From an uncultured archaeon (lineage in GTDB: Archaea > Asgardarchaeota > Lokiarchaeia > Sigyniarchaeales > SOKP01): a DNA stretch of 64,000 nucleotides. Shown here in pieces: positions 45,601 through 47,227 of the stretch (the first letter of the stretch is position 1; the number at the start of each line of letters is the position of its first letter). Location: assembly GCA_964508365.1 (NCBI GenBank), contig CAZDTP010000004.1, positions 33,681 through 97,680 of the forward strand, read 5' to 3'. The notes under the pieces are model-generated. The model was not told where the DNA came from. It ran no database searches and saw only the letters and a program-made list of their open reading frames with translations. The position numbers and the translations under genes were made by a program.

Positions 45601-46362
45601 ATGAGCTCTAAAAAATATGCTACTGATCCGAAGAAAAGATTTTCTAATAGAGTAGAAAACTATATCAAATACCGACCAAGCTACCCATTAGAAATTATTA
45701 ATTTTCTAAAAGAGAGAAATATACTAGCAAAAAATACTATAATTGCCGATATCGGATCAGGTACAGGAATTCTAACCAAAATATTCTTAGATAATGGTAA
45801 CCAAGTTTATGGGATTGAACCCAATAAAGATATGAGAGAAGCAGCTGAAAAAATTCTCCATGGATATACAAATTTTATAAGTCTTGAAGGTTCTGCTGAG
45901 TCTACGGGATTAGAGGAATATAGTATAGAACTTATCGTTGCTGGGCAAGCTTTTCATTGGTTCTTTGTAGAGAGGACTAAGAGAGAATTTAAAAGAATAT
46001 TAAAACCAAATGGTAATGTAGCATTAATTTGGAACAATCGCGGAAAAGCCGGAACAGATTTTAATAATAGCTATGAAAATTTCATTTTAAAATACGGCAC
46101 GGATGTTAGAGAAGTAAGGAAAAATGAGGGAAATGTGAATCTTTTTTTTAATTATCAAAAAGAAACATTCTATAATTTTCAAGAATTAGATTTTACCAGT
46201 TTTAAAGGTAGGGTCCTTTCATCATCTTACATTCCTTTAGCTGATACTCCTATTTTCCCAAAAATGATATTGGAACTGGAGGATTTATTTAACAAACACC
46301 AACGGAATGGTATTATTAAAATTGAATACGATACCGAAATATACCTTGGTAAATTAGAATAA
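45601..46362 (+). CDS. Class I SAM-dependent methyltransferase
   Basis: YIKYRPSYP, ADIGSGTG and AGQAFHWF. Confidence 0.9.
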   Translation: MSSKKYATDPKKRFSNRVENYIKYRPSYPLEIINFLKERNILAKNTIIADIGSGTGILTKIFLDNGNQVYGIEPNKDMREAAEKILHGYTNFISLEGSAESTGLEEYSIELIVAGQAFHWFFVERTKREFKRILKPNGNVALIWNNRGKAGTDFNNSYENFILKYGTDVREVRKNEGNVNLFFNYQKETFYNFQELDFTSFKGRVLSSSYIPLADTPIFPKMILELEDLFNKHQRNGIIKIEYDTEIYLGKLE

Positions 46363-46365
46363 TTT
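46223..46365 (+). repeat. Direct repeat copy 1 (3' end of the methyltransferase gene)
   Basis: catcttacattcctttagctgata...gaatacgataccgaa...taaattagaataatt recurs at 47086. Confidence 0.92.
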
Positions 46366-46403: not shown

Positions 46404-47066
46404 ATGAATATTATTGAAGATGAATACCGTAAAATAATTGAATTTTATCCTAATGCAATTGTTGAGAAAAATTGTATTTCTCAAGTAAAAATTCCAGTAA
46501 AAGATAAATTTTTTTTGGAAATCAACTTTAAAAATTACCCAAAAAAACCAATTGTTAATTTAATTAGTAAAGATGACCGTATGTATCGAAAAGTTGATAA
46601 AATTATTCCCTTATTAAATAGATGGGAAAAAAAAAATCCTCCTTTTATTATTGATCTCATTAATGAGATATTAACTTTCATTAACAGTTTGGAATCTAAA
46701 GATATAAAAATTAAAAAAGAATTACTAAATGGACTCTTAGCGTTATGTAAAAATCAACATCCGAGAGAAATATTAGGACTTTTAAGAATCATTAATGGAA
46801 TCGCGATAGAATATATTTTACCTCCAGGAGCAATTACTTCTAACACTTCTGGGTCTCTTATTCCTAGTAGATTGGGTTTTGATTTATCTCTCAAGGGATC
46901 TATTCATTCTCATCCTTCTGGAAATCCTAATCCTTCTCTTGTTGATATTAATAATGTATTTAAAACAAAAAAATTCAATTTTATTATTGCTTATCCATAT
47001 GATTTGAGCAGTATAAGATGCTTTAATAGTAAAGGACGGGAGATTGAGTTCAGCATATTAGATTAA
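46404..47066 (+). CDS. UEV/RWD-like (E2-fold, no catalytic Cys) domain fused to JAB/MPN+ (JAMM) metallopeptidase
   Basis: The C-half has an intact JAMM motif (HPRE...HSHPSGNPNPSLVD). The N-half LEINFKNYPKKPIV...LNRW...IIDLINEIL resembles the UBC fold. Confidence 0.75.
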   Translation: MNIIEDEYRKIIEFYPNAIVEKNCISQVKIPVKDKFFLEINFKNYPKKPIVNLISKDDRMYRKVDKIIPLLNRWEKKNPPFIIDLINEILTFINSLESKDIKIKKELLNGLLALCKNQHPREILGLLRIINGIAIEYILPPGAITSNTSGSLIPSRLGFDLSLKGSIHSHPSGNPNPSLVDINNVFKTKKFNFIIAYPYDLSSIRCFNSKGREIEFSILD

Positions 47067-47085
47067 AAGATTAGAGCCCTTTCTG

Positions 47086-47227
47086 CATCTTACATTCCTT
47101 TAGCTGATAATCTTATTTTTCCAAAAATGTTATTGGGATTGGAAGATTTATTTACCAGACACCAACGGAATGAAATTATTAGAATTGAATACGATACCGA
47201 ATAATATCTTCGTAAATTAGAATAATT
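47086..47227 (+). repeat. Direct repeat copy 2 (degenerate methyltransferase 3' end)
   Basis: First 24 nt identical to copy 1, roughly 85-90% overall by eye. Encodes SYIPLADNLIFPKMLLGLEDLFTRHQRNEIIRIEYDTE*YLRKLE*. Confidence 0.92.

Follow-up and report, generated by a model that had tools for sequence, protein, structure and literature searches.

A gene in the window, by which we mean the whole 64,000-nucleotide stretch of archaeal DNA that was analysed, encodes a UBC-fold N-terminal domain and an intact JAMM/MPN+ C-terminal domain on one chain. In the reading that we favour, to which we assign a probability of roughly 55%, the protein would be a single-chain deconjugase for ubiquitin or SAMP-like tags whose UBC-fold domain gives a binding surface in cis; its catalytic activity, its substrate and the ligand of its N-terminal domain are predictions in this reading. 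The gene is a single open reading frame of 220 codons plus the stop codon, and the coordinates of its parts are collected in Table 1. In more than 100 genomes it is likewise a single ORF, with products of 219-223 amino acids, and the ATG start is conserved across orthologues. The combination that the earlier note had claimed, an inactive E2-fold domain together with a JAMM domain carrying an intact motif, is thus real and conserved. Both halves are under purifying selection, the mean pairwise identity among 53 orthologues being 0.49 for the N-terminal domain and 0.61 for the JAB domain. Only about three residues link the two domains, and their orientation is uncertain in the full-length AlphaFold model (pTM 0.59). 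Members of the family appear in databases as 'Mov34/MPN/PAD-1 family protein', 'proteasome lid subunit RPN8/RPN11' or hypothetical protein. A two-domain UEV-like/JAMM protein is not described in the literature searched, by full text and in papers on Asgard ubiquitin and ESCRT systems, in agreement with the earlier remark that this was not recognised as a described architecture.

Table 1. Positions in the window of the UBC-JAMM fusion gene, its domains and motifs, and the flanking direct repeat.
Feature	Position	Strand	Evidence or remark
Whole gene, UBC-fold + JAMM/MPN+ fusion, 220 aa	46404..47066	+	
N-terminal cysteine-less UBC/UEV/RWD domain, residues 1-100	46404..46703	+	AF2, VIA, Foldseek, hhalign
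YPxxP turn of the UBC fold, Y45-P46-K47-K48-P49	46536..46550	+	Y45, P46 and P49 invariant; K47 at least 90%
W74, invariant Trp, 29 residues past the YP motif	46623..46625	+	Kept in dead paralogues too
C-terminal minimal AfJAMM-type MPN+ metalloprotease, residues 101-220	46704..47063	+	Pfam, phmmer, Foldseek
E122, catalytic Glu, aligned with the Glu of HPDE in AfJAMM	46767..46769	+	
H168-S-H170-x7-S178-x2-D181, zinc ligands and catalytic Ser	46905..46946	+	
156-nt direct repeat, reference copy, 3' end of the upstream methyltransferase gene	46209..46364	.	
156-nt repeat, second copy, decayed methyltransferase 3' end	47072..47227	.	87% identical

The protease half was readily assigned. In phmmer, residues 100-219 matched AfJAMM (Archaeoglobus fulgidus AF2198; 1oi0, 1r5x) end to end with an E-value of 3e-16 and about 30% identity, the alignment covering residues 3-121 of the 124-aa chain. 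Pfam PF14464 (Prok-JAB) was hit at 27.6 bits, above the curated threshold of 25, and a Foldseek search with the full-length AlphaFold model returned the MPN fold of 1oi0_A (E 1.2e-9, TM on target 0.89, rmsd 1.9 Å). Rpn11, CSN5 and BRCC36 were fold-only matches (Foldseek E about 1e-4, TM on target about 0.3), and the same holds for the archaeal JAMM1 desampylase (E about 1e-4); the NCBIfam desampylase model scored 13 bits against a cut-off of 130. The domain is devoid of the insertions of eukaryotic-type JAMM enzymes. Given the end-to-end match with AfJAMM and the fold-only matches with Rpn11, CSN5 and BRCC36, we conclude that the protease half is of the minimal archaeal AfJAMM/HvJAMM2 type and not of the Rpn11, AMSH or BRCC36 type. 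The complete E...HxH-x7-S-x2-D motif noticed earlier is exact, with E122 lying within HPREILG and followed by H168-S-H170, seven residues, S178, two residues and D181. All five catalytic and zinc-binding residues are retained in 52/52 active orthologues from species-representative genomes, a set fetched with a search pattern favouring HSHP, and also in the far more divergent forms of families f2, f3 and f4, which came from an unbiased profile search. Apart from its dead paralogue, described below, the gene is the only one of AfJAMM type in its genome. AfJAMM has been grouped with HvJAMM2, both are reported to be inactive if purified alone, AfJAMM as though a partner were missing, and HvJAMM2 is reported to be required in proteasomal turnover of a SAMP2-tagged protein (PMC4895103).

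Because Foldseek with the full-length model returned JAB proteins only, the N-terminal domain was folded separately by AF2, as residues 1-100 alone, from an alignment of 30 N-domains (A2). The model (pLDDT 87.9, pTM 0.81) has a helix at residues 3-14, four strands, the YPKKP turn, W74 and a long helix at residues 82-98. Its best 50 Foldseek matches were all ubiquitin E2 enzymes, individually weak (E 0.03-0.17), and the best 50 VIA-align matches among 48,161 chains all belonged to the UBC superfamily (Z 10.0 to 6.6), which bears out the UBC-fold assignment made from the letters alone. The UEV-like domain of VPS37A was the top VIA match (Z 10.0, rmsd 2.4 Å over 89 residues); a Plasmodium E2 reached Z 9.1, the UEV domains of Tsg101 and Vps23 8.8 and 8.7, and the RWD domains of GCN2, RWDD1 and RWDD2 7.9-7.0, with GCN2 at 7.9. 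BubB and BilB were also among the VIA matches. The Z scores of UEV and RWD domains differ by about 2 at most, so that the fold cannot tell a ubiquitin-binding UEV from a partner-docking RWD. UBC-fold domains serve also as plain protein-docking modules.

The landmarks that had been read as YP..P and W are Y45-P46-K47-x-P49 and W74, invariant or nearly so, and E2s and UEVs have the same YPxxP spacing. Across 54 sequences there is no cysteine at residues 38-100 and no conserved histidine at residues 45-77, where HPN is expected; the domain therefore has neither an HPN motif nor a catalytic cysteine, and the absence claimed before holds throughout this set. No Ser, Thr, His or Cys is invariant anywhere in the N-domain, the invariant residues being P16, Y45, P46, P49, L71 and W74, all of them fold landmarks. 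The true E2s of the genome, for example the E2 of the operon on contig C3, have HPN and the active-site Cys, which the N-domain lacks. An hhalign comparison of A2 with a profile of the order's own E2 enzymes gave E 7.7e-4 at a probability of 25%, with the alignment in register from helix 1 through the YPxxP turn.

Sequence families gave the domain no name. Neither Pfam nor NCBIfam named residues 1-100; Pfam UEV (PF05743) did not match the protein or the 30 N-domains at E up to 10, and Pfam UQ_con and RWD did not match the N-domain at any E-value given. A search of PDB sequences with the N-domain profile returned nothing below E 0.75, and the ESM Atlas gave no usable N-domain match. Pfam BRE gave sub-threshold, co-linear matches in 6/30 N-domains (E 0.0025-0.066; 13-17 bits against 25.8), spanning residues 44-98 and BRE positions 57-121. 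The domain is a non-catalytic UBC fold, UEV-like by definition and outside the Pfam UEV family. Searched over 1.8 billion representatives, the N-domain profile found 76 proteins, among them Promethearchaeota proteins of 560-690 aa with 3-5 tandem copies, whose outer copies pass the Pfam RWD or UQ_con cut-off and whose inner copies match the N-domain profile at 30-45 bits.

Some of these tandem UBC-like/RWD proteins (P0064, P0066, P0068, P0070 and similar) show weak matches to RING-finger, BRE or FANCL_d1, and they may be E3 ligases or scaffolds resembling FANCL or BRE; a copy of 550-590 aa is present in many f1 genomes. A further cysteine-less UBC-like domain (YPFLP...W..ENPP, about residues 140-230) was seen in a 568-aa protein of the window's genome (L097:1117-2823, G000:C42), where it precedes a degenerate ABC-ATPase-like half; the gene overlaps the end of an ABC ATPase gene.

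We surveyed 399 genomes of the phylum by profile search. The full-length fusion occurs solely in the window's own order, namely in 111/134 genomes of family f1, 1/1 of f2, 12/13 of f3 and 4/4 of f4, the order being defined by the grouping of the genome search, while the NCBI titles of some of its MAGs say Hermod-, Hod- or Odinarchaeota. Translation confirmed fused genes with intact catalytic residues in f2-f4, and family f3 includes complete genomes assembled as a single contig that carry divergent orthologues. In four families of other Asgard classes the match was limited to residues 98-219, and translation confirmed stand-alone JAB genes of 129-157 aa in these classes. The survey across Asgard that the earlier note had proposed thus confines the fusion to one order, with JAB alone in the other classes. 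Outside the phylum, JAB alone was found in Methanoperedens, Nitrosopumilaceae, Thermoplasmata and others. A tree of the JAB domain, built by a quick search on 129 columns, placed all fused forms on one side of a branch with moderate support (SH-aLRT 83), adjoining the Asgard JAB-only forms. This pattern fits a fusion that arose once, probably at the base of the order, and it looks like a single late event. A late fusion confined to one order can hardly have given rise to the UEV-JAMM partnerships of eukaryotes. The 'eukaryotic signature' framing under which the gene was first put forward has also proved weak, because the JAB half is of the archaeal AfJAMM type and no gene neighbour is conserved. 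Two longer open frames with putative starts, one of 497 aa at L143 (G132:C17) and one of 508 aa at L142 (G279:C417), contain a UBC-like domain and an intact JAB in their C-terminal part, preceded by about 250 or more residues.

Gene neighbourhoods were compared by clustering the ORFs within 6 kb at 54 loci. No conserved operon was apparent: no neighbour family was common to more than 15 of the 54 loci and sharing tracked relatedness only, nor did nine more distant loci show a recurrent Ubl or E1 neighbour. With no neighbour conserved beyond close relatives, nothing ties the gene to a ubiquitin or Ubl operon. In the window, a SAM-methyltransferase-like gene precedes the UBC-JAB gene, and in relatives the methyltransferase and JAB genes occur in either order. 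The second copy of the 156-nt repeat begins 6 nt past the JAB stop codon and contains an internal stop; this methyltransferase remnant, the trace of a duplication and rearrangement at the locus, is confined to the window and its closest relative. The latter (L001; DATKTW010000007.1, 2204-2863) holds a 95%-identical copy of the gene with the same neighbours on a contig titled 'Candidatus Nanopelagicaceae bacterium', an actinobacterial MAG; given such an Asgard gene and such neighbours, the contig is probably mis-binned. In another Asgard class, a single locus (L136; G117:C1:843244-846606) has a stand-alone AfJAMM-type gene 3' of a Cdc48/AAA-ATPase-like gene, with a roadblock/LC7-like gene likewise upstream.

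The genome carries a second copy of the fusion (G000:C8:66067-66732; 222 aa, 33% identical) with the same two-domain layout, in which every catalytic position is replaced (E122->K, H168->I, H170->R, S178->N, D181->K). Among such dead copies the pattern 'GTFISRPSG' is common to sixteen loci and to L054, down to 36% identity. The N-domain is retained in the dead clade, and the mean pairwise identity of the JAB half is 0.67 there, as against 0.61 in the active clade. A dead clade as conserved as the active one indicates a maintained pseudoenzyme and not a decaying gene. In the JAB tree, the dead copies form a single clade (support 100) with a long stem, which is nested within the active clade of family f1 (support 96) and so derives from a late duplication; two dead copies from f3 genomes lie among the f1 copies. 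The dead paralogue is found in about 16/153 genomes of the order. Nine genomes have both copies, most genomes with an active copy are without a dead one, and a dead copy without an active one occurs in at least three genomes of 98-100% completeness. An obligate heterodimer of active and dead copies is unlikely as a general rule by these co-occurrence counts, given the rarity of the dead copy and its occurrence alone. In the window's genus, a heterodimer of the MPN+/MPN- kind is possible.

Candidate substrates of both kinds exist in the genome, which encodes four ubiquitin-type and four ThiS-type proteins in addition to five E1-like proteins and three E2s. A canonical Asgard ubiquitin operon lies on one strand at L088 (G000:C3:60969-64436) and consists of an E1 (414 aa), an E2 with HPN and Cys (197 aa) and an Rpn11-like JAB protein (278 aa). 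Ubiquitin genes lie no more than a few kb away, and contig C31 has a further cluster of JAB, E1 and E2 genes. The ubiquitin operon thus already has its own, separate Rpn11-type enzyme. In the deconjugase reading, a stand-alone type-2 archaeal JAMM would have gained its non-catalytic UBC-fold domain at the N-terminus once, at the base of the order. Zinc would be held by H168, H170 and D181 of the JAB domain, which together with E122 and S178 would hydrolyse the (iso)peptide bond that follows a modifier's C-terminal glycine. The modifier would be a beta-grasp protein, whether ubiquitin or one of the SAMP/ThiS type, and the genome encodes both. Lone type-2 JAMMs seem to depend on an additional binding surface; the UBC-fold domain would provide it on the same chain and would bind with it either the modifier or a partner machine. 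Speaking against the deconjugase reading are the reported inactivity of AfJAMM itself in vitro (PMC4895103), the uncertain orientation of the domains, the lack of any neighbour conserved beyond close relatives, the plain docking role of other UBC-fold domains, and an N-domain matched neither by Pfam UEV, UQ_con and RWD nor, in sequence, by a solved structure.

Instead of reading ubiquitin, the N-domain could be an RWD-like docking or dimerisation module. It would then tether the JAMM enzyme to a larger machine (proteasome or Cdc48 ATPase, E2 or E3, or a further MPN protein), and there the enzyme would recycle tags like Rpn11 and as proposed for HvJAMM2. We regard this as possible though on balance rather unlikely. 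It accords with RWD scores close to those of UEVs (Z 7.9-7.5 against 10.0-8.7), with the nature of the N-domain's nearest relatives in sequence, which are repeats inside multi-UBC-like proteins, some of these matching RING weakly, with the argument that type-2 JAMMs require partners (PMC4895103), and with the one JAB-only orthologue just downstream of a Cdc48-like ATPase gene. The dead paralogue of the same layout recalls MPN+/MPN- pairs as well, but its scarcity and its occurrence without an active copy in near-complete genomes argue against such a tether, as does the lack of a conserved partner gene nearby. A more ambitious version of the ubiquitin-reading view is that the protein is a self-contained archaeal counterpart of eukaryotic UEV+JAMM modules (BRCC36-BRE, AMSH with ESCRT-I), in which the UEV-like domain would recognise ubiquitin, single or as a chain, and present it to the JAMM site, and which in some genera would pair with the MPN- paralogue as an independently evolved MPN+/MPN- heterodimer; we put this forward tentatively and consider it unlikely.

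The two other explanations are less likely than either docking or deconjugation. Prokaryotic JAB proteins often process precursors of the ThiS/MoaD/CysO type (PMC1779556), and the protein could mature a sulfur-carrier or other precursor in the manner of Mec+ on CysO or of DR0402 on MoaD-MoaE (the latter as cited in PMC11237513), with the N-domain as a merely structural appendage. Four ThiS-type genes in the genome would supply substrates, but not one of the 54 loci has an adjoining ThiS, MoaD or sulfur-metabolism gene. The N-domain is moreover conserved order-wide, with invariant landmarks that are independent of the surface, and its retention in the dead clade argues that it works on its own; we therefore think precursor maturation improbable. 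That the N-domain is a cryptic active E2 with a non-cysteine nucleophile, so that one protein both conjugates and deconjugates, has a precedent in the Bub E2-like proteins, which were first called inactive and use a Ser-His pair, the 'inactive E2' BubB having turned out to use serine (bioRxiv 10.1101/2024.11.21.623953). A domain whose invariant residues are fold landmarks and include no Ser, Thr, His or Cys, and which has no E1 fused or adjacent to it, makes such an activity very improbable here.

In the deconjugase reading, the fusion bears on a practical difficulty. AfJAMM and HvJAMM2 are hard to study biochemically because they are inactive alone; the UBC-fold domain is a candidate for the missing module, and the fusion, as a natural one-chain protein, is suited to assay. 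Asgard archaea of the Lokiarchaeia type have been reported to be without UEV-Vps23 (bioRxiv 10.1101/2023.07.25.550441), yet they diversified cysteine-less E2-fold domains and coupled one of them to a predicted deconjugase. The later, conserved pseudo-protease copy is convergent with the MPN+/MPN- logic of eukaryotes. As a late event within a single order, the fusion is informative about the combining of ubiquitin-type modules and not about the direct ancestry of eukaryotic complexes.

Among known systems, bacterial ones also unite UBC-fold and JAB domains in one polypeptide or operon, as in the E2-E1-JAB triple proteins (type 6a, CBASS Cap2-like; PMC1779556), in the Bub operons with JAB-E1 BubCD and Ubl-E2 BubAB (bioRxiv 10.1101/2024.11.21.623953) and in Bil, and an 'inactive E2/RWD-like' domain is part of the 6E/Bub operons (PMC1779556; bioRxiv 10.1101/2024.11.21.623953). 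In these systems an E1 and a Ubl are invariably present in a conserved operon, and the E2 domain is catalytic through Cys or Ser, whereas the fusion described here has no E1, operon or candidate nucleophile. With the UEV domains of Tsg101/Vps23, VPS37A and Mms2, the N-domain shares a UBC fold without catalytic Cys or HPN, but, at about 100 aa, it is smaller and without the helices found at the C-terminus of E2s, has no Pfam UEV match and is fused to a protease and not to parts of ESCRT-I.

In eukaryotes, a JAMM enzyme and its UEV partner are different polypeptides. The BRCC36/Abraxas (KIAA0157)/BRE complexes (BRISC, BRCA1-A) resemble the present case in joining a JAMM enzyme, a multi-UEV protein and an MPN- partner, and an MPN- paralogue is present in the genome. 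They do so, however, on separate chains and with a eukaryotic-type JAMM that has insertions, whereas the present protein is one chain with a minimal JAMM of the archaeal kind, it arose by a late fusion at the level of an order, and its BRE matches are below the cut-off. A possible counterpart of the MPN- partners in Rpn11-Rpn8, CSN5-CSN6 and BRCC36-Abraxas is the dead paralogue, copies of which are present in a minority of genomes of the order and sometimes without an active copy. With AfJAMM, the C-terminal 120 residues share the E..HxH..S..D site and the freedom from insertions; however, AfJAMM and its archaeal relatives elsewhere stand alone, with lengths of about 125-160 aa, whereas this protein carries a UBC-fold domain of 100 residues in front.
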